Positions 1 to 53,332 of a stretch of DNA of 64,000 nucleotides are shown here, piece by piece. The DNA lies in NCBI GenBank assembly GCA_002245135.1, contig NGBS01000608.1, forward strand, positions 1 to 64,000. The letters are read 5' to 3'. Numbering within the stretch: the stretch's first letter is position 1; every line of letters starts with the position of its first letter. A program made the position numbers and the translations under genes. The notes beneath the pieces were generated by a model, which did not search any database, was not told where the DNA came from, and saw nothing but the letters and a program-made list of their open reading frames with translations. The DNA is from Proteromonas lacertae. Lineage: Eukaryota.

Positions 1-3000
1 AACATTAAACTATCATACACTATATAATAACCATTTATTCCACCAACTGAATTAGAAGATTCTACAGAATAATCAAATCCAAAATATGCATTTGTTATTT
101 CTTCTTTTACAGGATAATCTTTCTCTAGTATTAATAATAAATGAATTATATTGGATTTTATATAGATTCCATTCTCATTTATAAAATCACATTGTTTACC
201 TTCATTTCCTTCCATTACACTAGAAAATGGATTTGGATCTAATAAACCAGTTGACTAGCTATTATCTCCACTTTTCCATTCATTATTTTAGCTGCATAGA
301 ATGATCGAGAGATATAGTTATTTGACATTAATTCAACAAAATTCGATCCTATCTCTTTCTTTACTCCTACCATTCCTTTTCTTACTGATGTTGGATCAAA
401 ACTATAAGATTCTCTACTCCCATTTCCCACAGTTTTACAGCTGTATAAGCAGCTTTCTGTTGATTGAACTAATTTGAAATAAGAACCAAATCGATTTGTC
501 ATTTTCATAAAAATTCATTCGCTTTTTCATATTTTCTTTCACTTCCTGTTCCAACTGCTATAAACCAAGAACCAAAGAATATATGATTCTCAAAATATTT
601 TTCATTTGTTTTAGTATCATATGCATCAACAAAATAATGAATATATACAAAATTTACTTCAGATGATTCCAAAGAATATAATGATTCAGATAAAGATAAA
701 GATAATTCATTATTCACTAAATCCATTATTACACAACCTTTATTATAATCACTCTTTATATTCTTTATTTCATCATTGTTAACTATCTCATTATAAATAT
801 AGAAATTATATTTTCTTTTCAATAAATCAAAATATCTTGAAATAATTCTTTAGAGGCATAACTAAATTCATCTTTATCATTATAGATTATACAAAATCCT
901 TTTGAATAACTCAATAAAGTAGATCGGAAGCATGAAGTAATTGATTCAAATTAGCTTGATTCACTATTCCATAACTATTACAATTTTCACCTTTCCGCTA
1001 TTCCCATATAAATAACAATTTCTTCGCTTTGTTAAAATAAGGAATCATTATATTATATTCTTTATCCCATAAACCACCAAATATTGCATTTACACCTGTT
1101 AATGCAGAGGTTTCTTTACTGATTGAATCTAATTTCTTTAAATCACTATCACTACTAATTATATCTACTTCAATCTGATTTTCCTATTAAACCATTTTCA
1201 TTTGTATTTATTTCTTCTACTGCATATAATATCGCACTTACCATCTCTCGGCCTCTTAATTCATCTCGACCATTCAACGATGCTATTATCTCAATCTTGT
1301 TACTTGGTTGTTTGTATTTTGAACCTATCTTTGTATCATTTAATACACATTTATATAATCCTGTATTTATAAACTTCTTCCAAGTTTAGGTCTTCCATTA
1401 TCATCGATTGCTTTCACTGTTATTTTTCCATTTCATCATTATAATATCGACCTACATACGTTCTTCTTTGGATTATGTTATTTGTTGCTAATTGCCATTT
1501 TCCTATTGGAGTTGTATATTCATTTTTGTAGAAATATTCTATTCCTATATCTCTGATCGATTTATCATCTTTTCCACTTATTAAATAATAATATCGATTG
1601 ATTGTTTCAGCCCAAAATAACACACAAGAATACATTGATTCATGATATCCATTCACTTCTAAACCACTTGGTAATGGATATCTCAATATATTCTAAATCC
1701 AATATTTCCAATTGATTCGATTGAGTTTAAATAATGTCTTAAACAAAAGAATGGTAATAATTTCTTTATTGAACCATTTGATACTGCCAAATGACTTACT
1801 TCTTCACATGTTGAGAATGAATAAAAAACATATTCATCAGTTGTTACACCTAAATCAACTAAAGCTTCAGATAATAATAAATGAATTCGAGCATTTCCAA
1901 AGAATAAAATTGTATTTCCACTTGGTAACATTGTCTTTATATTCTTCGCTATTGTACTTAATGACATTATATTCTCATCTAAACTTACGGAATATGTCAC
2001 ACTTCCTTTCAAATAATCGATATATCTTTCAGCATATGTACTGTATTTGATTGAAGTAGATTCAGATGTTCCAATTATTGCAAAATTCTTTAATCCTTGG
2101 TTTAATAATCTCATTATATAGATTTCTATAGAGGTTGGTTCTAATCCAATATGAATTATATTCTTTTCACAACTTTCACCTCCAAATAATCCAATATGAA
2201 ATAGTTTTATATTCTTTTCATTCAATTTGGGTAATATCATTTCTAAACACATTGAATTACTCGTACTAAATACCACATCATATTCATTCGTATTTAACGC
2301 TTCATTTAAACTGTTAAAACATATTGTTGAATCACTTTGATCATCAATTATTAAATAATCAACTTGTTTGTTATTGTTTATTCCTCCCAAATTATTTAAT
2401 TGGATTATTGCTTCTTTAAATGTTTCAGATATACCTACATAATCAGAATAATATATTCCTGAATTTGAAGTTACTAATATCACATGAATTATCTCTGTTG
2501 TGGATGTTGCACCACCATCATCATTATTGATATTTTCATTATTTATTAAGGTTGTTGTATCACACATTTTTCCATAATTTTCTGCAACATTCCAATCAAA
2601 TGCTTTAGGAATTGATCTTTGAACTGTTTTTACTACTTCTATTCCTTTTCCACTGTATTTATATACATACATATCTCGAACTAAATAATTACTCTTATCA
2701 AACCAAGTAGTTTGATCAGAATTTAGATATATACTGTATAAGTATTGTTTTAATATCAACAAATTTAAACTACCAGCATTACTCATTGCACTGATTATTG
2801 CATTTATTCCTATTGACATGGAAATTCCATCATCAGTTGTTTTGTAAAATCCAATATATTTCAATAATCGAGCTTCAGTTCTTTGAATTATATCACTACT
2901 TGTTACTGCACTATCTACACTTGAAACATAATAGAATTGATAAGGAATTCGATTATATTTCTTTTCAACTTCATCAGCATAGATTGACATTGAAAATATA

Positions 3001-6000
3001 TAATAATTATTTTCATCAGGATTGAGTTTCTCTAAAGTTTCTATTAATGAAAAGAATGGCTTTTTACTTAAGAAACTAACAATTATTCCTCCATTACTTA
3101 CACTTAAAGAATTGATTAATTGTTTTACTGTTTCCATCGAAAAGCGTTCAGTTTCTTGCATACTGAACTTTTGAACTACTCTCATTGAAGATGTGATTGA
3201 ATTAACAAATACTTCATAGAATTTATCCCAACTTGGATTTGGAGTATTAATTAAGATTATGTTTGCTTTATTTGTATTTTCCATATAAGAGATTGTTGTA
3301 TCAATTACTTGATTGATTATTGGACCGGTATAAAATACATTCTTATAACATTTTTCACCTATAAATCTTCCACTAACTATCAATAAACTATTATATTCTT
3401 CTGTTATTCGAACTGCTATATTTCGACAATAATCGGTTGTACATCCAACCATCAAGAAATTCACATTTTCATTCTTTATTCCAACTCCTAATTCATTTAT
3501 TTCATTCAATAATTTAGTTTTTAGTTTATTATCATTATCATTGTAGAATATATATATCAAATTCAGAAATCGACCTTTCTTTGTTGTTTCAACATTCAAA
3601 TTTATCTCATCAACTATCGCAGCTGAAGCTACTAACATTTGATAGAAATGAATTTCATTCTTTTGAGATAATATCACAAATAATGGGAAATAATTTATCA
3701 AATATTTTTCACTATTAATTGAAATGGTAAAACTACATTTATAAATATTTTTATTTTCGCTTATTAAATAAGTTGAATAAGGATCGGGAATTCTAGCTGT
3801 TGAAGAATCATATAACACTTTAAAATCGACTACAGAATTCTTGTTTTGAATTGTCATTATCAACGAAGGAATTGAGATTATATGATTTTCATTTATCATT
3901 AATGTTCCAATTGGAGAATTCACACTCACTCCACTTATTGAATTGATGAAATTTTCATATAAAAATGATTTCTTATTCTCAATTATGGATTTCCAAGCTA
4001 ATACACTTATTATTGAATAATACATATTATTAGTTGAATAATAGGATTCTACTAAATATGGATATAAATCTTTATAATATTCTACTATCAAATCATTCAT
4101 TTCATTTCCTTTTATTCCTTTCTTACTTGTCATTATCAACTGATTCACAAAATATCCAGAATATAATGGTAATACATTATAATCAACTCCAATATAATAT
4201 ATTCGGAAATTGGGTCTTACTATTTTACTTTCATAAAATACTTTAGCTAAAAATTGCATTTCACCTGTTTCCATCATTACTATGATTATTCCACTAGAAG
4301 TTAAATATGTAAATACTTGTTCGATTATGGCTTCATAACTTCTTCCATCTTTTAATATTCTGATTGATTTTAATACTTTGATGTTTAATGACGATAAATC
4401 ACTTATCAATATATCTTTAGATTTTCGACAGTATTCTACATCATTGTATAAAATCAAAACTCGAAATTTTGTCTCTAAATAATCACCTTCAATATAATAT
4501 TTTATTAATGTTCTGGATGTAAATGGAATTCCAACATATACTATATTCTCTTTACATTCTAATCCTTCATAATCATGAGGATAAAATAATATCATTTTAT
4601 ATTCAGATAATTTCTCTTTTATCTCATTTCGCATTTCGGAATTACTTAATCCAAATATATAAGATATCTTTTCTTCTTTAAATACATCCAAAGCTCCAAT
4701 TACTTTACTAACATCAGAATTTACATCTTTTACTATTGGTAAAATTATATATCCTCTTATTCCATTGTATTTCTCATTTATTACTTTACATATCAATATG
4801 TATGATAATAACATTGCAATATCTTGTTTAGCATAAGATCCACTTAATGATAATAACAAACCAATATTTATCACTGTTCGATAGTATTTCTCAGATCTTG
4901 AACTAAGCCAGTTACAACTGTATAGTGATTTTGGTAATATTGAATCAATATATACATTTGCTTCATTGGATTGTTCTAATAAAGTCATCATATGTGTTAA
5001 TATTCCATTACTATTATAAGCACTTATTGCTAGTGGATGACTTATCACATTATCTTGAGTAACTACTACTTTCCCAAATAACGTTTCAAATCCATCACTT
5101 GAATATAATTCATTTACTGTTGAATCAAAATTAGATAATACAGAACTGTCTTTTATTGATTCACATAACAAGAATAATGGTAATAAATACTTCAATTCAT
5201 ATCCATTCATTATATAACCATTTCCTAATACATTGTTGATATAATTGATGATTTTGTTACTCTTTAGATTTATTATATCTGATATTAAGAAATAATTTAT
5301 ACTAATTCTATTTTGAGTAAATGAATTATCTAAATTGAATGTGTAATAATAATAACTTAGCTTATAATTATTTAAATTATTTAAGAAATATCTCAATTTA
5401 TCATCACCTAAATTACAGATAATATAAGCATCTGAAAAATTATCTATTTTTCTACTTGAATAGTAATCCAAATTACCAATAAATTGGTTTATTTTATAAG
5501 CTATAGTATTAACATTTTCATTTAAATCTATTTGTAAATGACTTATTACTTGAATATCTAATTCTTTTATGGCTTTTAGAATTAGATTGTTTTGACTTTC
5601 TTTACTTGCATTATTATCATAAATAAATGCGATTTTACTTCCATATCCATATAATAAGAATTTCATCGCTGAATTTATAAATTGATCAGGTGAAGGAGAT
5701 ACAAAGAAGATGTTCTTTTTACAAATATTTCCTTCATTTATTCCAGTATAAAATAATATAGAATTTTGTAAACATAAACTGTTAGAATATAGTTGAAGTG
5801 AATCTATTCCACATCCACCTATGAAGATTCGAATATTATATTCATTTTGATCATTTTCCATTTTTTCAATTAAGGAGGAAGTCATTGGACATTCATAATA
5901 ATGATAAATCTATAAATAATAATAATATCAATTAAATATACAATTATTCTGGAGTTTAGATAATCTTCATTTCTTATATAGTTTGCTGACCATTTCAATA

Positions 6001-9000
6001 ATAATTCTATTTGTTCTTTTATTAGGTAATTATCATTTGATATTATTATTCCAATATGTAATGGATTGTTATAAATATTATTTATATCATATGAAAATAA
6101 ATTGCATGTTTTACTAGTGTTTGTCCACATCTATAATAATAATAATAATCATTATATAAATACTGTTGTATCATATCCATTTCCATACATTGGAGTTGGA
6201 TAACTATAGCTAAGTATAGGAAGTCCTACCATTTCACATCCTGTACTACCAGGTATTGTGCATGGGTAAAATACGATAGCAAATCCTTTGGTATAATAAT
6301 GAGATTCAGATAATTTCACTCCATCCAATTCTGCTGTTTTCATTTCTAAATTGTGGAGATAATTCATCATGGATTCTACCTTAAAAGTACCAATTTTTGA
6401 ATATCCATCTCTCAATATTTTCATTGGTTGATAAACATTCAAGAAGTTTTGAGTGATTAAATCTTTTGTTCCTGAAACTAATTCTATATCTTGGACTAGT
6501 TTATTAAAAGAATTTGATTTAGAAAAAGGATTATAACTATAAACAAAATATTGAGCACCATATGATAAAGAAACTGTATCTCTATAAATGTAATTAAACA
6601 TATATGAGTATTTACAATTTGTCATACTTAACATAGCATAATCATTTCTCACACTATCTGCATCAATGAATAAAATTAAAAATGCAACATATTCATAAAG
6701 ACTTTGATATGTATTACATATTGTTATAAAATCAATTGTTGAAGTTCTTACAAATAAAGAAGTTGTATCATTATATCCTTTGTAGATCAGATAATTCTTA
6801 GATTGTTCAGTTAATGAGATTGAAAATCTATTATATATATAAATAAAAACTATTATACTCATCTTTATCATCATATATTATTATCACATTCTTTGTCAAA
6901 CTCAATATTGTATCAATTGTCAAATATAAACTATTCTCATTTACTCTAGAATAGTAAAAAAAAGAGATAGTTAAAGAAAATATATTATATTAAGATCAAC
7001 AGAAAAAAGATATAACCATTATATTTGATTCACATGTATTACCTTCATAGATATAAAACAATATCAACAATTTATCATACTTATGTAATATTGGATTAAA
7101 ATATTCTACTTCTTTCTTTTTCAATAATCCTAAAAATGCTATTACATTCTCTTTCTTACAATCATTTATCAATGTTTCTTCTATTTCAGTTATATTATTC
7201 TTATATAATGGCAATAATGGACTTAAAATACCATTCGCTATTCCTCCAAATGTGTTAATCAAATCAATTGCATAATAAATATTACTAACTATATCAATTG
7301 ATTCTTTACTATCAAATCCATTTATTGGAACTAAAATCACTATATAATACTCTTTTCTACTCGATATAAATAATGATCCTCCTGTTATATAGTTATTATA
7401 ATCACACATTTCACCTGTTATATTATTAAAATAATAACTCTGTAAATTCGCTTTTGATTCAACCAATTGATCTGTTAAAGACATTACTGCTTTATCTTTT
7501 ACATTCTTTACTATATACTGGTAAGAATAACCAGAATCAGATAAACTATATGGACCATGAATAGTATCAATTCTTGCTGTGAATAATTGTTGAATTAATA
7601 AATCAAATTTCAATGTCATTGAATTACGAATTACTTTATCCCAAAGTTTAACTGAATGAAAAGCAGTAAACTCCATCGAAGATATATACATTGAATTATG
7701 TCCACCCATTTCACTTATAGTATTCATGAAAGAATAATCTTTATCGGCTCTATTCCATGTATATGGTTCAAATGAGTAATAACCCAATATAAATGGATTT
7801 CTATCATCATATTCAGCTATGTATAACACATAAGTTTTTAATGGGTCTAAAGATAATCCTTTATATGCATTTAATATGGATGTAACATAACTACTTTCTA
7901 AACATAAAATCACATTTCCTGAGAATTTATTACTCGATTCTGTATTATCATCTACAAATAGATGCATTCTAATATAAGACATGGCTGTAAATCCTTCAGC
8001 TATTGAATCATCTTTCATCACATATTCATATATATCTTTTATTTCATTCTCCATCAACATATGCTTCAAATAATTCGAAGTTAATTCTCCATATTTCAAT
8101 CTACTAGATATTATTGCTACTGGAGCTGTTGAACTTCTTAAATCGTTAATATAAAGAAATTTGGCTTTTACTGTAAATGATAAACCAGTGTAAACTATTT
8201 TCTCTTGACATTCAACACCTGTTGAATATCTTTCAGCCATTATTTGAATATCTTCCATTTCATTTGATTTTAATTCTATTTAAACACACAAAATATGATT
8301 TATATATACTTTGAATTAATAGATTTCTATCTTCTATTGTTAATGATGTAAATATGAAATTATAAACATTTAAATCATAATAATATTTCAATATTTTCAT
8401 TGTTTCATTTAAGGATTGTTTGTTATAATCAATTATTATTGGATAAACTGTTATCTTCAATAAACCCTAATTAACATTAAATAATATATATATATATACT
8501 TCTTCATTAGATTTTCTAATTTGATGCATTTCAGCAACTAATGCTGCTTTCTCTGAATAATTGTTATTACCTGATAAATAATGTAATAAAACTACACAAT
8601 GAACATAATTCACTTTACTTAAAGGACTAGAAACATTCTTCATCAATTCTGGTCTTCCCATATGTTCAACATAAGTAGATTTTATATTGAATAATAAAGT
8701 ATATACATTTGTAGTGGTATATATATTAACAATTATTGGATATATTATAACATTATATGATGTTAATGTCATTGTATTACTACCATCAAAATCTTCATTT
8801 CTATCATGTAATGAGTATATTAGAGTTGGATATTCTAATGTCTTTGATCTAAAATAACCAGCTTCAAACATTTTATATAACATAAATCTATTAATTAATA
8901 ATATAAAACAATATTTTCATACAGTTTATGAACAACCACTTGATTATCATCAGATGTCAATAATGTTGTGTCTATAACAGATTTATCTTGATTATAAGCT

Positions 9001-9833
9001 AATACAAACCTGATATACTCCCACTCTGGGTCTGATGTTGCTAATGTTGAAGGATTTGTGTCATCTTCAAGAATTACATCGATATCAAATCCACCATCAT
9101 TTCCTTGGGTTTCTAATCCATTGTCATAATATGCTTTCACTAAATCTGCCAAAATTGCATTCTTCACTAACACTATGGAAGAAAAACCTATTTGATTCAC
9201 TAATGGGTATTTCTTCAATGTGGATATTGTATTTGTTAAGTCTGTTGGTGTTTCAGGGAGTTCAATTATTTCTAGAGGAGGAACTGGGAAATATTCCAAC
9301 ATCTTTTTAACGGCTGAAGCATAAGGATGAGAGTTTTGATAAATAAATACACAGTCTCGGTTTTCATTAGCATAAATGTATACTAAAACAGAAAAACAAT
9401 AAATAATATAATATATACATCTTTCGAGTGTTTTGTATATCGATCCAAAGAATATAATATTGCTATATATCTGTGTTTCAGGTAAAGGGTGAATATTCCA
9501 CAATATCATACCATTATCCGATAACAGAGTGTTAATCTCGGTATAATTCGCAAATTTGACTAGATTGAAAATATTAAGAATGCCATTCTGTTTATATTCC
9601 AATAATACTTTTTCTAATCCTTGTCCATTACTACCTACTTCTTTACTTACTATATCTACAGTATATTTAAAAGTTGATGAGATGTTGACTTGCTTAAAGA
9701 AGTCATCTCTATAACCATCATCACTACTTGAGTGTGGATTATTCATTAAAAATCCAATTTTTATAGCATTTTTACAGCTGACTTGTGTAATCAGCAATAG
9801 AAGTGTTATAATGCCAAAATTAGTAAACTTCAT
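1..9833 (-). CDS. Giant secreted/surface protein with at least 9 tandem type-1 periplasmic-binding (UrtA/AmiC-like) domains; 3' end runs off the window
   Basis: ATG 9833 gives signal peptide MKFTNFGIITLLLLITQVSC. Short introns join ORFs 8895, 8467, 8260, 6996, 6152, 5882 and 1683. Repeated motifs INIGLLLSLSG...IN..GGI and FYPHDYEGLECKENIVYVG / IGEKCYKNVFYTGP / GGESCEKNIIHIG resemble UrtA YPVQYEGQECSKNIFYTG. Frameshifts/stops below ~1700. Confidence 0.8.
6954..7013 (-). other. U12-type AT-AC intron (60 nt)
   Basis: 5' ATATCTTTT, branch TTCTTTAAC, 3' TAC. Removal restores NIMV|YSRVNENSL. The nearby GT-AG option leads to an immediate TGA. Confidence 0.8.
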
Positions 9834-19333: not shown

Positions 19334-19493
19334 TTATCAAATATCTTCTCAATTAACTATATTTCTATTATAACTATAGCTAATAATGTTGTTGTATTTT
19401 TGAATAAACTAATAGAGTTTTTCTTCTATGTAAAAACAATCAAAATCTATCAAGCCAAAAGCTTGATATGTTTATGTAATTATTTTTCTAAAC

Positions 19494-21691
19494 ATGTCTC
19501 AGAAGAATGATACTATAATAAAAAGGCTTGGTAGTGGTACATATGGAGTTGTATATTTGGTAAAACATAACAATGAAGAAGTATCAAGAAAAGATATAAA
19601 AGTTGATAAATCAGATCCAAAGAGTGTAGAAAGCTGTTTGAACGAGATAAATATATTGAATAGTTTAAGAGATAGAAATGTATTAATTTATAAAGGTTGT
19701 TGTTGTGATAAATCTACTTCTACATATTATTTATACACAGAATATATGAAGAATGGTGATTTATTTGATTATATAAAAAATAGAAGGATTCAAAAACAAG
19801 AATTTGGTTTATCTGAGATTAAAGAATTTGTAATAGATTTAGTCAGTGGATTGAAATATATTCATTCTAAAAGAATCATCCACAGAGATTTAAAACCTGC
19901 TAATATATTTATAGGAAATCATTATGAGTTAGTTATTGGTGATTTTGGTATATCAATGAATAAAAAGCTTGTAGATTATCAATTGATTGGAACAGCTGCA
20001 TATATTGCACCAGAACTATGGACATGCAGTCCACCTTCATATTCTGTAGCAAGTGATATATTTGCTTTAGGTTGTATTTTGTATGAGATATATACATTTA
20101 AAATGTGTTTTGATCGAATGAATAATATAGCAATTCGTAATTTGATATTAGATGATTATTATCAACCAGATTTCAACTGTAGAAAAGAAAAAATAGAACC
20201 AGTTAAAATTTTAATAACTGATATGTTAAAAAGAAAACCAGAGAAAAGAATCAGTTTAAGTGATATTGAAAATAGAATTAAGAATATGACATTAAAAAGA
20301 AGTAATTCAATGCCAGATGTTCTTAATAATCAAAATGAAAAAAAATATAATAAATTTATAGCAATTTCAAATAGAAATAACTCTGAAATAATACAAATTA
20401 ATAACAATTGTCGTAATTCCAAATCAATATCAATATCATCATCCTCCACCACCCCAACAACATTATCACTCTGCTGGAATTTATTATCAACAGAATTATC
20501 AACAGCCGTTTCAACTTAACCAGCAACAGCAACAACATTATCAATCTGACAATATAATCTATCAACAAAATCAATTTCGATCTCCTCCTCCTCCTCCTCC
20601 TCCACCACCACCACCACCATTACTGCTACAAAATATGCAATTCCAATTATCATCACCTCCTCCAATACACTATCATTCAAAGAAAAACAAAAAGAAAGAA
20701 AAGCAAAATAAAAAAAAGCAAAATAGGAAGAATAGAAGAGAATATAGTTCATCATCATCATCATCATCTTCAGAATCTGATGTAGAAATAGTAAAATCTG
20801 TAGATGATATAGATATACCAGATGAAATAGATGTATAATATATAATATATTAATTTTATATTTGAATAGATAATAAAGTTTTACTCAGGAAATAGTTGTT
20901 ATAAAGATAATGATTTAAACTTCTATTTGAATATGAGAGTTGATAAAAGTCAATCATATTTTAATGAAGATGATATAAAAGTATGAATCTAACGATTATA
21001 ATGAATAGTTCTTATTTCCAGAATTGAATGAATTTTCATTTACACAAAAGCAAAGAGATGAATTTATAAAGAATGATTTAATAAGATATTATTATTTTGA
21101 TTTAATCGTAATTGTAATAAAGGAAATATGGTTATATAATTCGAGATGATTTATCATTTGATAAAGATCCTGATTATTATGAGTATATTTATTCTGTTTA
21201 TTTATATAATAATGATAATAGAAAATGGAAAGGTAAAGAAGAAACAATGAAAATATTGAAAATGTTAAGAAGAAGTATAAAAGACACATTTAATGATAAT
21301 GAATATATAAATTTAATAGAAAAACTAATAAAGAATCGTATATAAAAACATATTTATATTAATTCTATAGAAACAGAAAAAAGATATGAAGATATGAAAA
21401 AAAATAATAATAGGATAATGAAAAGAAGTAAAAAAGAAAATTGTAATAAGAATAACTATGATAATATCGTTCTTAATTATGACAAAATAGAATTATGTGA
21501 TTCTGTGAAAAGAAAGAAAAATAGTGATGTTAGAATAGAAAATGGTGATGATAAAAATGGTATATTATTTATGTGTATATATTTTAGAAGAATCAAAAAG
21601 TATAAAAATTTCAATAATAGTTGTATATCTTACTGTAATGGCTTTTTGCTTATCAAAGATATTTTTATTTATAGGAATTTATGATAGTTAA
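19494..21691 (+). CDS. Gene C: NEK-like Ser/Thr kinase + P/Q-rich linker + OGFr-N-like domain + C-terminal TM tail
   Basis: GSGTYG, HRDLKPANIF, DFG, GTAAYIAPE. One frameshift near 20330-20420 and one near 21122. Exons IIKFYSGN...FLFPELNEF. Last exon EESKSIKISIIVVYLTVMAFCLSKIFLFIGIYDS*. Confidence 0.75.
20819..21378 (+). repeat. Inverted duplication, arm 1 (~560 bp)
   Basis: Reverse complement of 22662-23220, near-identical including introns. Confidence 0.95.
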
Positions 21692-21780
21692 TATGATAGT
21701 CATTTACCCATATGTTTATTTGTTACAACCCCCAAATTACATAATACAATAGAATGTTAATGCATTTACAAATTTAATTT

Positions 21781-23923
21781 CTACATAATAATACATCCAC
21801 CACTATGACTTTTAACTGATTCTCTACATTTTTCCAACCGATTTATTGTTTCATCATCGTTGTATATACTTTTTACACTTTTCTTCATTTGCTTCAATAT
21901 ATCACCTAAATTCTTATTATCTTTATATTTTCTATATCATTATATAAATAATAAATATACAACCAAATCTCTAAGTCAATTTTTGGTAATGAATTTCTAA
22001 TATCAAATCCGAATGTCTCAAGTATTCTATATAACAAACCATAATAATTACTTTTAATCATATTATCGTTTTTAAATTCATTTCTTTCGCAATCCTTCAT
22101 GTAATACTTCTCATCTTCAGAATCTTCAAAACATGGGTATAAAAACTATAAAATATTAATAAATACATAAAAGCAATGATATATATATATACTTTTCTAT
22201 TATCATATAGCCTATCAATGTTAGATAACCCATTATCAACATAATATTTAACATATCTTCCATAAAAAGGTGTTTTACCTTGATAAAATGTAATAATAGT
22301 AACTTCATCTGGCTTTTCGTAATTATCCAAATTATAATTATCTTGTTGATATTGTGGTGGATGATATGGCACTTCTACTATTGGTGGTGGTGGTTGTTGT
22401 TCTCCTTTCTATATCATCAGATGAAAAAAGATTTAAACTTTTTACACTATTCCATAGCCCAGATATAAAACCTGGATTATTATTATCATCATGTTTTTCC
22501 ATTCTTTTTTCTTTTTCTCTTACATTCTCATGATTATTTTCTTTGTCTTTCTTTTCCATTCTTTCATTATTGTCTTTTGGTTTTACAATTACTCCATCTT
22601 CTTTATTCTTATACACTTCTTGTTTTTGTTGTTGATATGATTTTATCTCTACTCTTTCTGGTTCTGTTTCTATAGAATTAATATAAATATGTTTTTATAT
22701 ACGATTCTTTATTAGTTTTTCTATTAAATTTATATATTCATTATCATTAAATGTGTCTTTTATACTTCTTCTTAACATTTTCAATATTTTCATTGTTTCT
22801 TCTTTACCTTTCCATTTTCTATTATCATTATTATATAAATAAACAGAATAAATATACTCATAATAATCAGGATCTTTATCAAATGATAAATCATCTCGAA
22901 TTATATAACCATATTTCTTTATTACAATTACGATTAAATCAAAATAATAATATCTTATTAAATCATTCTTTATAAATTCATCTCTTTGCTTTTGTGTAAA
23001 TGAAAATTCATTCAATTCTGGAAATAAGAACTATTCATTATAATCGTTAGATTTATACTTTTATATCATCTTCATTAAAATATGATTGACTTTTATCAAC
23101 TCTCATATTCAAATAGAAGTTTAAATCATTATCTTTATAACAACTATTTCCTGAGTAAAACTTTATTATCTATTCAAATATAAAATTAATATATTATATA
23201 TTATACATCTATTTCATCTGACAGTTTTACATTATCAGTACGTTTTATTTCTTCTACAGTAGGAGAATTATCAGAATCTGAAGAAGAAGATGATGATGAT
23301 GAACTATATATTTTTCGATTATTCTTTTTATTATCACCTCCCTTCTTGTTTCTCTTTGAATGATAGTTTATAGGAGGCGGAGGTGGAGGTGATGGTTGGA
23401 ATTGTTGTTTAAAAAGAGATGGTGGAGGATTTAACTGAGGTGGAGGAGGAGGAGGTGGTGGTTGGAATTGTGATTGCAGCTGTTGTTGTTGATATGAAGA
23501 TATTTGAGAATTGTTAAATGGATAATTTGGATGAATATTACCCTGACTAGGAAAGACTTGTAGTGGTTGTATTGGTTGTTGATACATTTGTTGTTGTGGA
23601 GGTTGAATTTGATAAGGTTGATATTGATTTGGATTTTGATAGGACATTGACAAATTTTGATTTGAAAGTAGTATATTACTATAACTATTAGAAGGTGTAA
23701 CTGTATTCGTATAGCTAGAAGGAACTTGAGTTACAGAACTATAATTAGTTGGCTGTGTATTATAATAAACATTAGATTGCGGTATTGACATACTCTTAGT
23801 ACCTACAGACAAATTTTGAGTATTATGAATTTGAATGAAGCGATTCATGGGTTGTGCATTTTGAGTTGGTGGTTGGTTTGAAGATTGGTAAATTATGTTG
23901 TTGCTTGGTTGTGTAGGTTGCAT
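21781..23923 (-). CDS. Gene D: P/Q-rich N-terminus + two OGFr-N-like domains + CaaX (CIIM)
   Basis: Spliced ORFs 23201, 22695, 22338, 22097, 21906; ends EKCRESVKSHSGGCIIM-TAG. Confidence 0.75.
22662..23220 (-). repeat. Inverted duplication, arm 2
   Basis: Matches 20819-21378 with only ~2 differences seen. Confidence 0.95.
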
Positions 23924-24286
23924 TATTTAAATTTTTCGACTTCTAATTGTTGTGTAAATTAAGAATATTTCTATCAAACCTTCAAGCCTTTTTTCTTTTT
24001 TAAGCTTAATCTCATCTGCTAAGCTTCATAAAGCTATAAAGTTATGATAAATAAATTAAAAATGTTTAATTTGGCATAACATAGATATGAAGGTTGTTTT
24101 TAGAAAATGTAAATAATTTTGACTAAAATTAATGCTTCAGGTTCTATGTTTATATAAAAATTCTTCATTTGTGTTTCTTTTTAGTTTATATCATTGAAAT
24201 TCATAATTATGTAATATTTTAACTGTTTTTACATAAATTACTAAAATTGGGGATTTAACGAAAATTTTCAAATTTTTATTTTTAGA

Positions 24287-27200
24287 ATGAGCTATAAGAC
24301 AGATGAAATTATAAAAACAATAGGCAAAGGGAGTTTTGGAGATGTATATTTGGTAATTAATAATGGCTGTGAATTGGCTAGAAAGGATATTAAGGCAAGT
24401 AGTTCAGATATGAGTGAGGTACATCACGAAATTGATCTTTTGAAAAAATTAAGGGATAGAAATGTAGTAATATACAAATATGACTTTTATGATAAAGAGA
24501 GTGGCATTTATCATATCTACACTGAATATTTTGCCAAAGGTGATTTATATAATAGTATTAAACAGCATAGAGATAGTAGAAGTGATTTTAATGAAAAAGT
24601 ATATTTTTGTTTTACATTTTCTTTACATAGACTATTATAAGTAGTATTAGAGACTTAGTCAGTGGATTGAAGTATATTCATTCACAAGGAATTATTCATA
24701 GAGATCTAAAACCAGCCAATATATTTATAGGCATTCATAATGAATTAGTTATAGGTGATTTTGGAATATCAATAAAAAAGAATGTAGATAATAGCAATCA
24801 TTTAATTGGAACAGCTGGATATGTAGCTCCAGAACTATGGACAAGTAATCCACCATCATACACACCAGCAAGTGATATATTTGCTTTAGGTTGTATAATA
24901 TATGAAATCTACAGTTTGAATTTATGTTACTGTGGTAATACATCAGCTGTAATTCGTAGTTTGATAATAAATCCGAAATATAAACCTCAGTTTCATAGAT
25001 ATACGTCAAGAAATAAAGCAATAGAAGAATTAATAATGAAGATGTTAGAAAGAGATCCAATGAAAAGAATTAAATTAACAGAAATAACAAATTTTATTAA
25101 TTCAAATAGTTTTGCTATTGATAATATACAGGAAACTCAATTTATAGATGTTAATGAGATGACACCTTTACAACCTCAGCAAATACAATCAGTTCCAATA
25201 CAGCCACCACCTCTTTCTCAACCATCTCAATTACCACGACAAGTACAATCTCAACAACAAATGCCAATACAACAGTTACAATTTCAGCCACCACCACTTC
25301 CTATACCAATTCAACAACCAGTATATAATAATCCCTATAATCAATATCAAATAACTCCACCTCCTTTTTATATTCCAGGTCAATCGTTTCAATTGAATTA
25401 TCAACAACAACAACAAACACAACAACAATATTATATGATGAATCAAAATACAGTATATTCAAATCAACCTACTCCACAACCACCTCAACCTCCACCAAAT
25501 ATATATCATCAACAACAACAGCAGCAACAACAACAACAACAATATCAAACTAAATGTGATGAAGAAGAAGATGAGGAGGAGGAAGAGGAAGAAGAAGAAT
25601 CAAGTGAAGAAGAAGAAGAGACTAATAAAAGACATAGAAATCATCATCATTATAAACATAAACATAAACATAATCACAGTAAATCTCATAAATCAGATAG
25701 TAATGATAATGAAGAAGTAGAAAGGGATGTAAGAAAAGAAAAAGGTGTAAAAGATGTAAGTGAAAAAGATGTTAAAAGTAATATGAAAAAAGATATAAAG
25801 AGTGAAGTTAACAGTGAAATGAGAAATCATTTATCAAATGTATAACTATTATGATATACTTCATATAGATATGTGAATTTTACAGAGGTAATTTTTCATT
25901 CAAAGGAAGAAAGATTATACAATATTTTCAATTAGATTTCAAAGATTTACTGGATATTGATTTTTATGGTGATAAATATGTATTATATAGTTTTATTATT
26001 TATATTGAAATAGTTTTATTTCCCAACGCTCAATCAAACAATATTTCCTTTTACCATAGATAATAGAAGCAGTATAGTGATTTTTTTAAATTTATAATAT
26101 AGCATTTAATAATGATGATATAATAAAAATTAATTATGAAAATCTTGTTGAAACTGCATTAAACAAATATGGTTATGAAGCAGAAAAGTATCCAGGAATA
26201 GTACATTCAAAAGGGTTTGATATGTTTAAAGGAAGAGATGAAACAATTAAAATGTTTCAACAAATAAGAAAATCTATTGAAGATATATACAATAATAAAT
26301 ACTACTTGGATATGATTGATGAATATATAGCTGAACGTATCTTTATTGATGTTATATATAATAGAATATGCTAGTAAGTATGAAAATGAACAGCCAGTTG
26401 TTGAAAATAGATATGAAAGATCTCCAATTATTGATTATTATGAAAATGAAAGAATTATATTAGGATATAAAATCAAAGATTTATCTAAACTAAAAAAAGA
26501 TGAATTTAGAAGAGAATGGAATGAGAATTATTATAAAGTATATTTTGTGTATGTTTATATCTTGTAGTGGATATTTCCTACTATTAGTCAAGAAGATCCA
26601 TCATTTACATTTGAAGATTTACAAATTCTAAAGAATAACAAAAATACTAAAGATATTTATAGAACAGTAATTCAGAAGATATTAGTACTTCATGGAATTG
26701 ATATTAAGAAAAATCAAAATTATAATTTGAATAAACAACACTCTTCAATATTGATAAATCAGATAGAAAGAATATCTCCATTTTTAGATTTAATGGAAGA
26801 TCAAGAATATTCAAATATGTTAGAATCGATTGAATATTCATTGAAAGGCATTATAGATGCAGATGAAGCAAAAACTGTTGTATTTTATTTAATTGTTATA
26901 ATATTTTAGAGTGATTTTCTTTTTTTTAATAAACCATTGAATGGATATACAATTACTGAAATTGAAGCAATGACTGCTGAACAGTTTTATGAGTTTGATA
27001 TTGATAAATATTTACCAGTATAATTCATTACTATTTCTTTTTATCATTTAGTGGATTTTTCCTAATTCGATTCAAGAATATCCTAAAGTATCACAGGAAG
27101 ATAAACATAGTATGATTTATTTGCAGTTTAACAAATTAATAGATATTGACTTACATTCTATGTCAATTATGGATATAACAAGAGATATTATTATTAAAAT

Positions 27201-40641: not shown

Positions 40642-42023
40642 TCACAATCTACTCAAGCATTTCATTCGTTTATTCAAATTATAACACTCTTCTTTCATCT
40701 CATTCAGTATTTCATTCTTCCGCGATGTGTAATAGAATATGCAAAGGAAGAAAACACAAGATACAGTAACAAAAGCACTAACCACGAATGGAACTCTATG
40801 GTGAATAGTATACAATCCACCGAATATAAGTGGACTAATAATTTGACTTAAACATGAAAAGGTATTAATAGTTCCTAGAATTTTACCTTGATTCTTACTA
40901 GAGAAATATGACTAACCAAAACAGAGTAACTTGATACAGTCATACCAAATCCAAGCAAATACACTACACTGCCACTCATTACGATTGAAAATGGTGTTGA
41001 TATAATGAATATCCATCCAATAATTTGAATAATATATCCTATAAACATTGTATGTCCAATATAAACATATTTACATAATAATGGAAAAAGAAATAATTGA
41101 AAAATTGTCATTATACATGAATTAAAAGATGCAATACCTCTATATATAATTAAAAAAGGAATATATATATACGCTAATATTACTTGGTTATTAGTATAAT
41201 CATCTTTTAATCTTTTACCTAAATAAGAAGAATTACACATTAATGCAACATTATCACACAATGATAATATGCAAATAATATACTATAAATAATAACATTA
41301 GAAAATATACAATTGATATGTTGGATAAATCCTGATTTGAAGTATCTTCACTTTTGTTATTATTTTCTTCAATTTCTATTTTTCTCACTGCATCATTACT
41401 TTCGTGAGTCAATAATCTCATACTACTTCCTATATAATAATAGAATAGATTATGCTTTGATTATCAAAGTCAAATTTTGGACTGTCATCTAACAGTATCA
41501 AATCAACTACAAATATTAATGTATAAACTACACCACACATAGAAAATGGAATCCAATTGCCATAGTTATATAAAACACTACTAACAAGTGGACCAATTGA
41601 TAATGAAAGTGTTGAACAACCAATTATTCTACTTAAATATTTTGTTTTTTCTTCTTTCTTTACACAATCTGAAATATAAGCTTGACAAGTACCAAGTGTA
41701 GTTCCAAAAAAGCCAGCGATGAATCGAAACAATATCATGAAATAAATTGAAGGTGAAAACATTTGTAATACTGCGCCTAGCATTGATCCAAATAGTGTAA
41801 TTAAGATCAGTTTCTTACGACCAAATTTGTCACTTAAATAACCTGTTGGAATATAACTAATGAACTGAGCAGCAGGATAGCTTGAAAATAGTAAAGAGTA
41901 CAATAAGTTGCTGTTATTTCCAGCATAAAATGGTAGTAATGGCATTATAAAAGACATGCATGCCATATCTGACACTACAGTTAAGAATATAAGTACCAAA
42001 TTCTTTTTAAACTTGTTGTTCAT
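40642..42023 (-). CDS. MFS transporter (DHA1/TetA-like) copy 1, with a 1-bp frameshift and a GC-AG intron
   Basis: GYLSDKFGRKK motif A. One base is missing near 40903 relative to copy 2. Intron 41430-41455 starts with GC. Confidence 0.85.
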
Positions 42024-42164
42024 TTGTTAGACAAAAAATGTTTTGTATGTCAAGCTTTTCTTCAAATCTTTGTGTTTTATTTTTTAAATATCATTGTATA
42101 GATTCTATATAACATTAAATCACATGTTTTTATTTAATATATGTGTAAAGCTGATTATACAAAT

Positions 42165-42359
42165 AAAGAGTAATACCTTTTGATTTAATACACAAAGAAA
42201 GACTTATAAGTATATATATATCATAAAAATAAGAGAAATATTTACTTCATTTGTTTATTCAGGTTATAACACTCTTCTTTCATCTCATTCAATATCACAT
42301 TCTTCCTCGACGTAAAGTAGAATAATAACAAGAATAAAACACAAGCAACTGAAATAAAA
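42165..42359 (-). pseudogene. 3' remnant of an MFS copy; direct repeat of ~46443-46684
   Basis: 42253-42359 matches 46578-46684 with one mismatch seen. Confidence 0.9.
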
Positions 42360-42616
42360 TTAACTCAGATTAATACATACTTTAAGTTGAGGTTAAAATT
42401 ATGGTTATAGCACTAACAACTATTGAGAGTTATTCTTTAACAAAAAGATAAATAAACATATTTGAATATAGTCAATATAATAATAGATCATTATTGCTGT
42501 ATAGCAAAATCATTAGTTAATAAGGAAATTAATTAGCATATTGAGATAATTCTTCAAATGTAATACACACTGTTCTTGCTTTATCCTTTGCTAGAGCATT
42601 TAAAATAACTTTTTCG

Positions 42617-45600
42617 TCATGCCTCTAAATCATTAGGAATAAAATTTTTAAGCCATTCTGGATAGAATTTCATACTTCTATCATCTACTTCATTTATACT
42701 TACTGTTTCATTGGGACTGATGAAGAATAAACCAAATGGACTTTTCTTTGTAACACGTGTAGTATTGCTAATATCATTTATGTGATTATAGTGTTTGTAT
42801 ACATGTTGTAGTATTCTAACCATCTCGGGTGAAAAAGTATGGCTATTACTAATCGTAAGTTGAATACCAAAAGGACCAATCATTCCGTCAATATCGGGGA
42901 AATTTGTTCTGTAACTTAAGTCTAGTAAGTACATCTTCCCTTTTTCTTCTATTTTCTCTTTAATTTCATCATCATTTCTCACTGCAACCACTTCTATTTT
43001 CTTTTCACTTGTTGAGAATTCTTTTCTAATATTCTTTTTATCTTCTCTATTTATGCCAATCACATCTACATATGTATCTTTTAAACTCTTGTTTTCACTA
43101 CACATTCTATTAAAAACTAAATTCATAAAATTATTATCTACTTTCATTAAATAAAATACAATATTCTCATATAAGCATCCTTTTATACTTTCATTTCTTA
43201 ATGTTAACAATAAATCTATCATTTGTATACATTTTTCTTTTGTTGTAATTTTAAATATAGATTCTTTCACCATATTTTTTACAGTTTCAGATATAAATGT
43301 TAAGTTATCGTATATTCTAACATCATCTTCATAAGTTTTATAAATAAATATATTGTTGTTGTATTTACCTTCAATTATATCCTTTATTCTAATCTGTTTA
43401 ATTTCATAGTCTATTCCACTCTGATCAATTCCATTATTTCCTATTACACCACCATAATATTCATAGTTGTTCCTGTAATTTTTTCTGATTTTGTTATATG
43501 AAACAAACGAACGTTTATTATTTAGTTTTTGTTGAAGAAATCTATTTTCATCAAATTCTTCCTCTTTTATTAATGACGAATTTAAATGCATTTCTGTAAT
43601 TGCCATATTTGACACATGTACATCTAAATCATGTTTATTCATGAAGCAATTGGGATAATTTCGATATAATTTATATTTTGGATGTTTCAGAATTATCACT
43701 TTTTCCACTTCTTCTTTTGTAAATGGAGGTATATACATCACAAGTGGACATCTTTTACTTTGAAATGCCTTATACTCTTCTTTTGTTTGATCAGCTATTA
43801 ATATTATCATTTTCGCTTCTGGATATTCATCTTCACCAATTACAGCTCCAAGTGAAATAACAATATATGGTTCAGTATCTTTATAGTTATATATATTTTC
43901 TTTTCGTTTTTCTTTATCATTAATTGTTATTATTTTGAAATTTTGATTGTTTTGATGAATATGTTCTTTTAATACAGCTGCTAAGACTGTTTTACCAATT
44001 CTTTCATGACCAAAAATTAAGTAGTTCTTTTGATTTTCATTAGTAAAACTGTAATCATTATTAAAAATAACATCAAGTATCTTTTTATAACAATCTCGCA
44101 TTAAATAAATTCTTATATTATTCTCTATAAATGCTTCTATTTTCTCTGGTTCTTGTACTTTACATAATGGAGGCGGAATTTTTGTATTTAATCTTTCTAT
44201 TAATTCATTCCTACTTCCATTTGCATCTAATCCATTCATTGTTAATATATTCTTTAATTCATCTTCTGTTAAGTTATTGTAATCATAATCCATTTCTTCA
44301 TTGTTATTATATCCTTCTTCTTTTGCTTCTTCTTCTGTTGCTGCTTTTGCTTCTTCTTCTGCTGCTGCTGCTTCTTCTGCTTCTGCTTCTGCTTCTGCTG
44401 CTTTTAATTTATTAATTAATTGCGCCTTGTTTCCATTTTTTGTTAATCCTTTCTTTCCTAATAATTCTTTTAACTGAACAACTGTTAATTCTTCATAATT
44501 AACATTATTTTCACCTCCTACACTTACTATATCAATTTTATCCCCATCTTCTTTTAATATACAATAAACAAATTTGCTATTTTGGTTCTCATTATAGTTC
44601 TATTATATATTATAAGTTATATATAGATAATACTTTTACTGATTCTTCCATTTTATTTTTAGTATCATTATTATCTATAAATGTCTCATTGTTATATAAT
44701 ATTTTTATAAATACACCATTCATAATTAAGTCAAAATAACTATCTTTATCCAATATAAAATAAAGAAAATTCTTTGCACCTACAGGACAGTATAGTGAAT
44801 TCTTTTTCGTTGACTTAAATTGAAAATATTCATCTTTATTCTCAATTTTGATTACTTCTGTTGCTAGTTGATACGCTGTAATTTGTTTCAATGCTACTTT
44901 CTTCATATCCACATCAGCTATGCTACTGTAATTCTTAACTAGATTAAGATATTCATCATTATTTCTAGGAGGATAGAAATTATAAATTATGTAATCTTTA
45001 ACATATTTTGATATAAATTTCAAATGATCTTTGTTTGGTTGATATACATCATGACGTAAAATTTCATTATACATCTTCTTTAAATCATATTTTAATATGA
45101 TATTCGACAAATCTTTTCTTTTTAAATAATTATTATTCTTATAATTATTTAAAAATTTGTCATAACCATCTGAACCTACAACACCTTCTATGAGTTTTGT
45201 ATAATATTTCCAATAATCTTCATTATAATTCTTATTATATAAATAACTGAAGTACACTAACCTGGGAATATTACCATAACGTTTACAAACAAGTTTAAAA
45301 CTATCACTTTTTACATCAACATTATCAAAACCAATACAATTCTTAAACCAATTCTGAATTTCCTTAAATGTTAATGATTGAAAATATAATTCGACTTTAT
45401 ATTCATTCTTTAGATATATATCATTATTCTCTTCGTCTGGAGAACTAATAGAAATAACTGTATTATCATTTTTGAAATGCATATTACAAGTATCCACTAT
45501 TATTATTGCTTTGCTAATAGCAGAAGTATCAATATCACTTAGAGTAAGACAATAACTCATCATTGTCGTATATACCAATCTATAAACTTTTGTTTTTGAA

Positions 45601-46181
45601 TAATCACCATGTTTCTTACCTTTTACAACAAATACACCACCTGTATATCTTTCATTCCAAAATGGATTCTTCTTTAGTTTGTATAATAAAAAATAAATAA
45701 ACGAGGTCTTACCAATACCAGGCTGACCAGTTATTACTGCATTCCAATGAAACTCTTTTTCAATAATTTTCTTTATATCTTCATACATGCTATTATAACA
45801 TTTTCTGATGTAAACTTTTTTCTTAGGAAATTGAAATACATTTACATTAACACTTGAAAATTCCAAATACTCACTATCTGCACTATTATCTTCTTCATCT
45901 TCATCATCATCTTCATCTTCTTCTTCATAATCATCTTTTTCATTTGGTATTTTGGTTAGATTCATAGAATTAATGATATCCACAAAACTATCACTTATTA
46001 TATCTACTATTCTTAGATAGTTATTATCTCCTTGGTTATTACCACCTCCATTTCCATTCATATTCATAACTGGAGTTGTGCCTGAAGCTGTATTTACAAA
46101 TCCACCTGTATGTTCATCTTTACATTCATCTTCAGCTACGTTTTTACCTTCATCTTTATTTATAATAGAATCTTGCTCCAT
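42617..46181 (-). CDS. Crinkler/RHS-type protein: P-loop NTPase - degenerate REase - SAP - SAP - NTPase - PD-(D/E)XK-like REase
   Basis: Phase-0 intron 44600-44633 joins the two ORFs. VYIRKCY..VITGQPGIGKT; SAP motifs LTVVQLKELLGKKGL..NGNKAQLI and LTEDELK..L..NGL..NGSRNELIERL; YLMRDCY..GHERIGKT; NFPDIDG...IQLTISNSH. Confidence 0.75.
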
Positions 46182-46563
46182 ATAATTGTTTAAAGGCTAT
46201 TAAGTGAGATATTAAGGATTATAATTTCAATCAAATCAAATCAAACCTAATTTTATCAGTCAATAGAGAGAGAGAGAGAGATGTTGATAACAAATGAATA
46301 ATTATCTTTTTTCATTAACTTTCTTCGGGTCAATTATTATCTTAAAATAAACTATATTACCACATTGTTATAAAAATATTAACTGATGATACTACTATAT
46401 CATCTTCCACTTCGAATTAAAAATGGTGTAAGGAGTAGAATTAAAGAGTAACACATTCATGTTGTTGATAAAGCATATTCAATTTAATAGCACAAAAACA
46501 CATATTTAAGTATATATATCATAAAAATAAAGAGAAATATTTTTCATTTAATCACAAACTATT

Positions 46564-48032
46564 TTAACTACTCACTCGTTTATTCAGGTTATAACACTCT
46601 TCTTTCATCTCATTCAATATCACATTCTTCTTCGACGTAAAGTAGAATAATAACAAGAATAAAACACAAGCAACTGAAATAAAAGTACTTACAAAGAAAG
46701 GAACTTTATGATGTATAGTATACAATCCACCAAAAATGATTGGACTAATAATTTGACTTAAACATGAAAAGGTATTAATAGTTCCTAGAATCTTACCTTG
46801 ATTCTTACTAGATACAATATGACTAACCAAAACAGAGTAACTTGATACAGTCATGCCAAATCCAAGTTCATGAATTACAGCACCACATAAAACAATTGAG
46901 AATGGAGTAAATACTATTAACATCCATCCAATAATTTGAATCATATATCCTATAAACATTGTATGTCCAATATAAACATATTTACATAATAATGGAAAAA
47001 GAAAAATTTGAAAAATTGTCAATACGCATGAATTGAATGAAGCAACTCCTCTATATATATATATATATATATTTATATTTATTATTATTATTATTATTAT
47101 TATTAATACGCAACAATGATTTGATTATTAGTATAATCATCTTTGATTCTTTTACCTAAGTATGAAGAATTACACATTAATGCAACATTATCACATAATG
47201 ATAATAAACATATAATATACTATAAATAATAAAATATATATTAATAAATATACAATGGATATATTAGTTAAATATTGATTCATATTCTCTTCAGATTTAT
47301 AACTTTCTTGTCTTGATATTTTGGGTAAATATATTTCTATATTTCCACTACTTGCTCTTGGAATCCTTCCAGCTATTGTATCTTCACTGGTTATAACAAC
47401 ATCATCATCTTCATGACTTAATAATCTCATACTACTTCCTATAAAATAGAAGACTAATGAATACTTTGATTATCCATATCGAATTTTGGACTGTCATCTA
47501 ACAGAATTAGATCTATTATAAATATTAATGTATAAACTATTACACACATTAAAAAAGGAATCCAAGTTCCAAAATCATATAAAATACTACTCACAAATGG
47601 ACCTACAGAGAATGCAAGTGTTGAACATCCAATTATTCGACTTAAATATTTTGATTTTTCTTCTCTTTTCACACAGTCGGTTATGTAGGCTTGACAAGAA
47701 ACGATTGTTGTTCCAAAGAAACCTGCGATAAATCGAAATAATATTAAGTAACCAAGTGATGGAGACAACATTTGCGCTACAGCACCTAGTATAGATCCAA
47801 ATAGTGTAATTAAGATCATTCTTTTACGACCAAATTTATCACTTAAGCAACCCATGGGAATGAAACCAATAAACTGTGCTGCTGGATAACATGCAAATAA
47901 AAATGAATAAACTGTTGCATTACCATTACCAGCATAAAATGGTAATAATGGCATAATGAATGATACTGCTGCCATATCTGACACTACAGTTAAGAATATA
48001 AGTACCAAATTCTTTTTAAATTTGTCATTCAT
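46564..48032 (-). CDS. MFS transporter copy 2
   Basis: GCLSDKFGRKR; 3 introns; paralog of copies 1 and 3. Confidence 0.9.
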
Positions 48033-48246
48033 TCTGTTTTTAATAAAGAATCAAATATTTACAAGCTGTACTTCAAGCTTTTTGTTTTAATAAACCTTCA
48101 TATTTCATCTTTTAATTCATATTGAAGTACTGAGACATATTATTGTATATTCATTTTGCCTAATACAAAACTAAATCAATAGAATACATATAATTCAACA
48201 AATATATGATAATAGCATAACTATCCATTTAGTTATATATCCTATA

Positions 48247-49610
48247 TTAACAAGTAACTCCTTTATTCACATTATAACATTCTTCCTTCATTTTATTCAA
48301 TACTTCATTCTTTCTGGATGTATAATAGAAAATAAAAATGAAAAAAACGCAACTTATATTAATCAAGGTAGCAGTAAAGAAAGGAACTTTATGATCAATA
48401 GTATATAATCCACCAAAAATGATTGGACTAATAATTTGGCTTAAAGAAGAGAAAGTATTAATTAATCCCAAATATTTCCCCATATTCTCATTTGAAACAA
48501 GATGACTAACCATAACAGAATAACTGGAAGCTGTCATACCATAACCTAATCCTTTAATTACAGCTCCACTTACCATTAATGAGAATGGAGTTGATAATAT
48601 TAGCACACATCCAATGATTTGAATAATATATCCAATCAACATAAAATGTGGAATGAAAAGAAATTTACATAATAATGGAAATAAAAAGAGTTGAAAAATT
48701 GTTAATACAAAAGAATTGAATGAAGTTAATCCACTATATTTTAAAAATAATAAATAGAATTATACGCAACAATTACTTGATTGTTTGTATAATCATCTTT
48801 GATTCTTTTACCTAAGTATGAAGAATTACACATTAATGCAACATTATCACATAATGATAATAAACATATAATATACTATAAATAATAAAATATATATTAA
48901 TAAATATACAATGGATATATTAGTTAAATATTGATTAGTTTTATCTTCACTTGTTTGATTTGGTATTTTCATTATTTCTTCTTGCTCTTCCTGACTTAAT
49001 AATCTCATACTACTTCCTATTAAATAGAAGAATAAAGAATACTCTGATTGTCTTCATCATATTTTGGACTATCATCCAAATATATTAAATCAATCACAAA
49101 TATTATCCCATAAACTATTGCACACATTAAGAAAGGAATCCATTTGCCATAATTGTATAAAACACTGCTTATAAATGGCCCAATAGAAAAGGAAAGTGTC
49201 GCAAATCCAACTGTACGGCTTAAATATTTTGATTTTTCTTCTTTCTTAACACTATCTGATATATAAGCCATACATGAAACTATTGCTGTTCCAAAACAAC
49301 CAGCTACAAATCTAGCAAGTATTAAATAGATTAGTGATGGAGAGAACATTTGTAATATTGAGCCTATTATAGATCCAAATAATGGTATTAAGATCATTAT
49401 TTTTCTTCCAAATTTATCACTTAAACAACCAACTGGTATGGAACTAATAAACTGTGCTGCTGAATAACTAGCAAACAGAAAAGAATACATTGTGGCACTG
49501 TTATTACCAGCATAAAAAGGCAATAACGGCATTATAAATGACATTGCTGACATATTTGCTACAACTGTTAGAAAAATAAGAATTAGATTCTTTTTAAACT
49601 TGTTATTCAT
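48247..49610 (-). CDS. MFS transporter copy 3
   Basis: GCLSDKFGRKI; same exon structure as the other copies. Confidence 0.9.
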
Positions 49611-49811
49611 TGAATTTTATATTCTGTCAAGCCAAATTCTTTTATGATTTGTGTTTTTCTTATTGTATAGTTCGTATATTATTGCTAGAAGATATTCATT
49701 TATCATGAATTGTAATGTTAATAGCAATGCCCCCATATATTAAAACACAGATAAATCAAATGAACTCTCTAATGAAAAGATGGACATTTAAACGATACTA
49801 TGCTAATAATA

Positions 49812-53165: not shown

Positions 53166-53332
53166 GATGTTTTTATTTAGTGAATATAACTGGATGAAAT
53201 GTTCAGCTAGTTAAATAAAATTATTGCCACAGTTGAGTATATGTATAAGTAAATAGAATGATGTAAAAAAGTTACAAACATAACAGATGAACAATCGAAA
53301 ATATCAATTTATTTTTAAAATAACAACAAAAA

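Follow-up and report, generated by a model that had tools for sequence, protein, structure and literature searches.

How does a eukaryotic gene, likely of a protist, come to encode a row of bacterial-type binding domains, and what might such a protein sense? The question arises at the low-numbered end of the window (the whole 64,000-nucleotide stretch analysed here), for which the original prediction described at least nine whole UrtA/AmiC-like domains joined into an extracellular multi-ligand receptor or scavenger. A textbook class C G-protein-coupled receptor (GPCR) has one flytrap per chain, and a chain of nine raises the question of how binding many domains away from the membrane reaches the seven-transmembrane (7TM) bundle. 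The reading favoured here, to which we give a probability of roughly three in four, is a giant protein with a row of UrtA-like flytraps, probably closed at the membrane by a GABA-B-like class C GPCR bundle; it would sense small solutes at the cell surface, urea probably not being among them.

Gene model and reading frame

On the minus strand, one spliced frame of at least 3181 aa runs stop-free, with eight introns, from the ATG at 9833 to the window edge (Table 1), which bears out the predicted concatenation into a protein of more than 3000 aa. From the continuity of the frame and from relatives, we infer that all exons belong to one transcript; co-linear relatives predict a full length of about 3800 to 3900 aa. 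The first intron (9418-9383) is in frame, and its spliced form is weakly preferred (22.9 versus 19.7 bits). At 7013-6954, the AT-AC choice restores both frame and motif; a GT-AG intron at 7016-6946 was considered as an alternative and rejected, the frame being broken. The gene is intron-bearing and multi-unit and lies among eukaryote-type neighbours (HSF, protein kinases), unlike a stand-alone prokaryotic ABC-transporter protein.

Table 1. Features of the array gene in the window.
Feature	Position	Strand	Remarks
Multi-exon gene	1..9833	-	3181 aa inside window, runs off low edge
Exons	9833-9419, 9382-8923, 8887-8500, 8466-8310, 8275-7014, 6953-6859, 6827-6164, 6130-5942, 5909-edge	-	no stop
Seven short GT-AG introns, 31-36 nt	9418-9383, 8922-8888, 8499-8467, 8309-8276, 6858-6828, 6163-6131, 5941-5910	-	
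Predicted U12-type AT-AC intron, 60 nt	6954..7013	-	minor-type 5' site and branch-point-like sequence; frame-based prediction
Predicted signal peptide, aa 1-21	9771..9833	-	translation read by eye, not by signal-peptide predictor
Unit 1, highly degenerate flytrap	8527..9770	-	family profile
Unit 2, Cys pair 496/764	7380..8502	-	
Unit 3, Cys pair 888/1156	6083..7352	-	PF13433 E 4.2e-05 on its first exon
Unit 4, Cys pair 1273/1542	4893..6070	-	
Unit 5, most UrtA-like	3714..4880	-	3/8 urea residues kept
Unit 6	2541..3701	-	
Unit 7, S122/N246/S274 equivalents kept	1329..2501	-	
Unit 8	168..1301	-	
Unit 9, first 50 aa	3..152	-	78-86% identical to orthologues that continue
Stretch needing 12 one-base frameshifts	253..1694	-	probable consensus errors

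All 12 frameshifts fall within the last 1.7 kb, with none in 1693-5861 (4.2 kb upstream, also covered by orthologues). They are probably assembly errors, because orthologues P0001-P0004 (Logan) each cover the affected stretch with one uninterrupted ORF of about 2100 aa; P0001 and P0002 share 73-76% identity with the window protein and 73% with each other. Only 8/12 shifts lie near base runs of at least 3 (background 0.51), so that a homopolymer signature is not significant, and this, together with the number of shifts itself, would suit a pseudogene of such a receptor. We consider a pseudogene very unlikely: the shifts are confined to one end, no in-frame nonsense codon occurs, and identity to orthologues is not lower in the shifted part (unit 8, 74-79%). 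Similar frame breaks in unrelated window genes (near 10960, 20410, 35478 and 36470) suggest indel errors across the whole assembly.

The window has a GC content of about 23-30%, and its low GC, short GT-AG introns and AT-AC intron resemble Blastocystis, as a resemblance only. The downstream motif of Blastocystis was not enriched in the window (9 versus 5.8 expected; 15/100 shuffles as high). In the available text of the respective reports, Blastocystis is described as having many AT-AC minor introns (PMC10639083, PMC5608401) and low-GC lineages with longer introns (PMC12129017).

The flytrap units and their origin

The array comprises eight complete UrtA-like units of about 385 aa and the first 50 aa or so of a ninth; the repetition of UrtA-like units thus stands, with unit 1 very degenerate, and the count of at least nine whole ones does not. 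The motifs that had been quoted are present on the minus strand (IPDPY at 3791-3777 and YKCSF at 3743-3729; PKAFDW at 2609-2592 and GKMCDT at 2573-2556; DPNPF at 239-225 and GKQCDF at 200-183). The profile scan called for at the outset placed the main ORF (1408 aa, 1686-5909) in PF13433 (E 1.1e-50) and TIGR03407 UrtA (E 4.4e-46), with UrtA as the best PDB sequence. It scores 173 bits on PF13433 versus 40 bits on PF01094 (ANF); on TIGR03407 it collects 157 bits over four stretches, below the curated cut-off of 492.75. Matches to Latrotoxin_C (E 0.017) and Tet(45) (E 0.071) were below cut-offs and were taken as chance.

Scored singly, units 2 to 8 reach 20-142 bits on a canonical UrtA-type unit profile (shuffles, 50 each, at most 8.9 bits). 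Unit 1 scores 1.5 bits on that profile, which is not significant, and 23 bits on a family profile (97 units from AT-rich relatives, window orthologues excluded; shuffle maximum 0.6); BLAST found nothing similar to it in the first 400 aa of relative P0025. The units are highly dissimilar among themselves, units 3 and 8 being the closest pair (36 bits). A cysteine pair 262-275 aa apart is kept in 7/7 of units 2 to 8 and presumably forms a disulphide; 58 of the 80 bacterial UrtA loci fetched have a pair 261-269 aa apart.

In the fold search with the model of unit 5 (pLDDT 85.8), which was built on a UrtA-rich alignment and therefore leans toward UrtA, the first six places go to UrtA chains (TM-score 0.81-0.82, rmsd 2.8-3.2); AmiC follows, and mGlu5 and GABA-B come at ranks 30 and 37, respectively. 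By sequence and by fold the units come closest to UrtA (TIGR03407; PDB 8hic, 7s6e, 7s6f, 8tg1), which has a similar cysteine spacing. UrtA, however, is a single soluble transporter domain, whereas the window units share about 18-24% identity with the closest bacterial rows and retain 0-3/8 urea residues. The amide receptor AmiC (PDB 1pea, 1qnl), a PF13433-type sensing domain whose role is taken from PDB titles, is the next-best match in fold and sequence, weaker than UrtA and a single bacterial domain.

With a canonical eukaryotic protein as the query row, the best 80 of 599 genome matches were led by cyanobacteria (50-53%). A first, quick tree was built from 65 rows: 24 of these 80 loci, 15 bacterial-type matches, 17 canonical units and 9 AT-rich units. 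In it the 26 eukaryotic units all share a branch (SH-aLRT 87) whose neighbour is cyanobacterial-type UrtA (91), subject to warnings about long branches and composition; the window units sit there on very long, composition-biased branches, and their placement among eukaryotic units has an SH-aLRT of 87 only. For a careful tree, the 9 AT-rich rows, 3 long bacterial rows and degenerate units were left out, the window units among them, and the outgroup was not cleanly separated; the 17 canonical eukaryotic units formed one clade (98/91), joined with cyanobacterial-type UrtA at 96/99. Both trees are confined to rows other than ANF or GABA-B flytraps, the comparison with those being one of scores and folds, by which the units match UrtA far above ANF_receptor or GABA-B/mGlu. 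The units were likely gained from a cyanobacterium, laterally or endosymbiotically, in line with the bacterial UrtA origin first put forward. The family would illustrate unusually clearly the proposed descent of class C ectodomains from bacterial binding proteins, its donor family being still recognisable.

The probable membrane end

Relatives were collected with HMMER (471 proteins at E <= 0.001), the highest ranks being multi-unit proteins; 53, chosen from the best 150 of the 471, were scanned with Pfam, and 11 of these carry 7tm_3. We mapped 41 AT-rich-type relatives or fragments, chosen by length and composition, on the window protein. Nine extend beyond unit 9, all of them with 7tm_3 starting at window-equivalent aa 3508-3546 and none ending after unit 9 without it; P0031, a tenth, was mis-mapped in this exercise and fits by separate alignment. 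The remaining 31 stop within the array, many of them close to residue 150 of unit 9. The 7tm_3 match of P0011, a truncated protein, reaches 27 bits, under the 33.5 cut-off. As a side observation, the ORFs of several relatives stop near unit-9 residue 150 in sequence that looks like a retained intron or like a minor-type 5' splice site read through, which may point to a conserved intron there.

The nearest relative with a 7TM, P0008, is co-linear over its residues 1-1449 with window aa 1694-3178 (35% over 1501 aa), and its ORF then runs uninterrupted through unit 9 to a 7tm_3 domain at 1793-2038 (E 1.2e-13). P0025 extends from a signal peptide as far as unit 9, in register with the window, orthologues (73-76% identity) share the unit order, and close orthologues end inside unit 9; where relatives continue, unit 9 adjoins the membrane domain. 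Because relatives that pass unit 9 carry 7tm_3 in register, the window gene very likely encodes a signal peptide, nine units and 7tm_3, with a C-terminus off the window; the suggestion that a 7TM domain might lie beyond the edge is upheld by way of these relatives.

The scavenger that had been offered as the other role, here a secreted or anchored multi-site protein with no 7TM, would agree with a window that contains no transmembrane segment (no hydrophobic 19-mer above 1.9 anywhere in the 3181-aa protein, X placed at frame breaks) and with the dinoflagellate protein P0193, whose membrane part gives no 7tm_3 match and implies that other endings exist. Against the 7tm_3 found at the same register in 9/9 co-linear relatives past unit 9, it appears highly improbable. 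A word-based search with the main ORF, aimed at longer relatives, gave none among 4403 candidates, where HMMER found many; a metagenome contig scan with P0002 returned 19 pattern matches and no relative, and a plasmid search returned one weak partial match only.

The model of P0008 unit 9 plus 7TM (pLDDT 75.7), biased like that of unit 5 by the family or UrtA alignments used to build it, contains, besides a flytrap and a stalk strand, seven helices with an ECL2 hairpin. In a Foldseek search the model comes closest to GABA-B chains, with a flytrap-7TM orientation that is not superposable (rmsd about 25); for the flytrap taken by itself, UrtA is the best match (Z 35.0, rmsd 3.8, 344 aligned). 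GABA-B subunits (PDB 6uo8, 7eb2, 9jr0) likewise combine a flytrap, a short stalk, no nine-cysteine domain and a 7tm_3 bundle, and they are also the best sequence match of the relatives' 7TM; they have one ANF-type flytrap, whereas the array here has nine UrtA-type units and a 7TM known from relatives only. The single ANF_receptor-type flytrap of mGlu and GABA-B is not the type seen here. Traits that the window gene shares with class C GPCRs are a large, presumably extracellular N-terminus, a signal peptide read by eye and a predicted type I flytrap fold.

The TM3 motif K-x-W/Y-R is an intracellular coupling motif of GABA-B. It is present in 5/13 scanned relatives, several of those without it being cut short, and it is absent in P0008, so that G-protein coupling or output may be atypical in that branch.

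Ligand pockets, distant relatives and known receptors

Eight urea-site residues (W120, S122, Y141, Q144, E146, Y190, N246, S274) are called conserved in the available text of a Prochlorococcus UrtA study, which reports that single mutation of S122, Q144, Y190 or N246 strongly reduced or abolished binding and that W120A was unable to bind (PMC10392092). Units 2 to 8 keep 0, 1, 2, 3, 1, 3 and 1 of the eight, respectively, in an alignment that is uncertain for such divergent units and in which unit 1 is unalignable; unit 5 keeps S122, Y141 and E146. W120 is in no window unit, and none keeps more than two of S122, Q144, Y190 and N246. Since the units keep at most 3/8 of the urea residues, they are not intact urea binders and the window copy is probably not a urea receptor; the urea or amide binding first envisaged is not supported for it. 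Pocket sites are invariant across three lineages at 32/43 positions, barely above whole units (0.58-0.71), and therefore give no sign of a conserved ligand. The array may plausibly bind several ligands.

That the protein is still a urea or amide receptor, through a rebuilt pocket, would accord with UrtA as the nearest family by sequence and fold and with the residues retained in unit 5 and in unit 7 (S122 and N246); with W120 gone from every unit and at most two of the four binding-critical residues left (PMC10392092), we find this very unlikely. The same pockets bear on a nine-unit 7TM protein without small-molecule ligands, a disulphide-stabilised surface rod serving adhesion, contact or mechanical sensing, with a 7TM perhaps not G-protein-coupled. 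The urea site is kept in no unit, extra conservation of pocket sites is slight, the cysteine pair persists throughout units 2 to 8, and TM3 of P0008 is without the GABA-B coupling motif, all of which would fit a rod. However, the predicted two-lobed fold is intact, the pockets are position-specific and held across lineages in units 5, 7 and 8, and full urea sites occur in distant relatives; a rod is unlikely on this balance, and a sensor of small solutes remains our preferred reading.

Three distant eukaryotic relatives, P0191 (ENA, 4080 aa), P0192 (JGI, 3909 aa) and P0009 (Logan, 3745 aa, N-terminus cut), have nine units and 7tm_3 each. The units of these proteins group with cyanobacterial UrtA (96/99), and P0009 scores 2937 bits on PF13433 versus 74 bits on PF01094 (ANF). 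All eight urea residues are kept in 8/9 units of P0191, 7/9 of P0192 and 5/9 of P0009, and the membrane-proximal unit of each keeps at most one. The best PDB match of all three 7TM bundles is GABA-B2. These proteins are the best candidates for a eukaryotic urea GPCR, and the complete, experimentally defined urea site in some members makes a named ligand directly testable. Single units of the window could not be paired as orthologues with single units of the canonical relatives; the canonical units do not pair by position, and nine may therefore be inherited or reached separately.

A solute sensor of this kind could have arisen from an ancestral array, derived from a cyanobacterial-type UrtA, that multiplied to nine units and was fused to a class C 7TM. 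Displayed at the surface, the outer units would bind solutes, and in relatives with intact pockets they would bind urea; the always-degenerate membrane-adjacent unit would relay the conformational change to the 7TM, with G-protein output. In GABA-B2, a non-binding flytrap passes a conformational change. In the AT-rich lineage, with its many divergent family members, pockets would have drifted to other ligands or structural roles. More tentatively, and at somewhat less than even odds, the locus may belong to an old, undescribed protist class C GPCR family with a fixed set of nine cyanobacterial-UrtA flytraps, in which intact members sense urea through at most eight sites per chain and a Blastocystis-like lineage has expanded to a repertoire of rebuilt pockets. 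If the host is Blastocystis-like, gut protists may possess an enlarged set of sensors that has so far gone unstudied.

Outside metazoa, class C GPCRs that carry bacterial-type binding domains are known (Bmp, OpuAC, SBP_bac_1 and Peripla_BP domains, and diatom PBP1 receptors), according to the accessible portions of PMC3251606, PMC3971589, PMC3727952 and PMC5168858, and also of PMC12716839; a GPI-anchored flytrap is described for Entamoeba in such a portion of PMC12965686. The supplement of PMC3971589 has a generic Peripla_BP + 7tm_3 label, with no readable subtype or copy number in the part available. In the texts at hand, bacterial-type N-termini of class C receptors reach up to 730 aa (diatoms), 1600 aa (gut fungi) or 1667 aa, compared with about 3500 aa and nine UrtA-type units here. 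The last unit and 7TM of relative P0040 have as nearest Atlas clusters mostly diatom proteins with 7tm_3 and ANF (810-901 aa). A nine-unit UrtA-derived array on a class C GPCR was not found in the literature searched (UrtA with GPCR, tandem flytrap, Blastocystis and diatom topics; some by title or abstract, with subscription journals outside the scope). The distinct features here are the UrtA origin and the count of nine; tandem flytraps on 7tm_3 are possibly not unique.

UrtA-type domains were also seen in other arrangements. P0193 (Pfiesteria piscicida, EukProt) has four UrtA-type stretches, intact and degenerate ones alternating, with ephrin-receptor-like repeats. P0038, P0049, P0050, P0054, P0109 and P0137 (about 1450-1600 aa), likely bacterial, have two UrtA-type domains at or near both ends, most with HEAT, NACHT, NB-ARC or AAA domains between.

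Elsewhere in the window, paralogous protein kinase genes with Gln/Pro-rich tails occupy 19467-25845. Repeated MFS transporter genes at 40875-49616 (minus strand) surround two long ORFs, one with SAP domains (42617-44599) and one with no Pfam match and a P-loop-like motif (44610-46196). Two tandem Na+/H+ exchanger genes, presumably bacterial-like, lie at 49812-53210 (minus strand), each as one long ORF.
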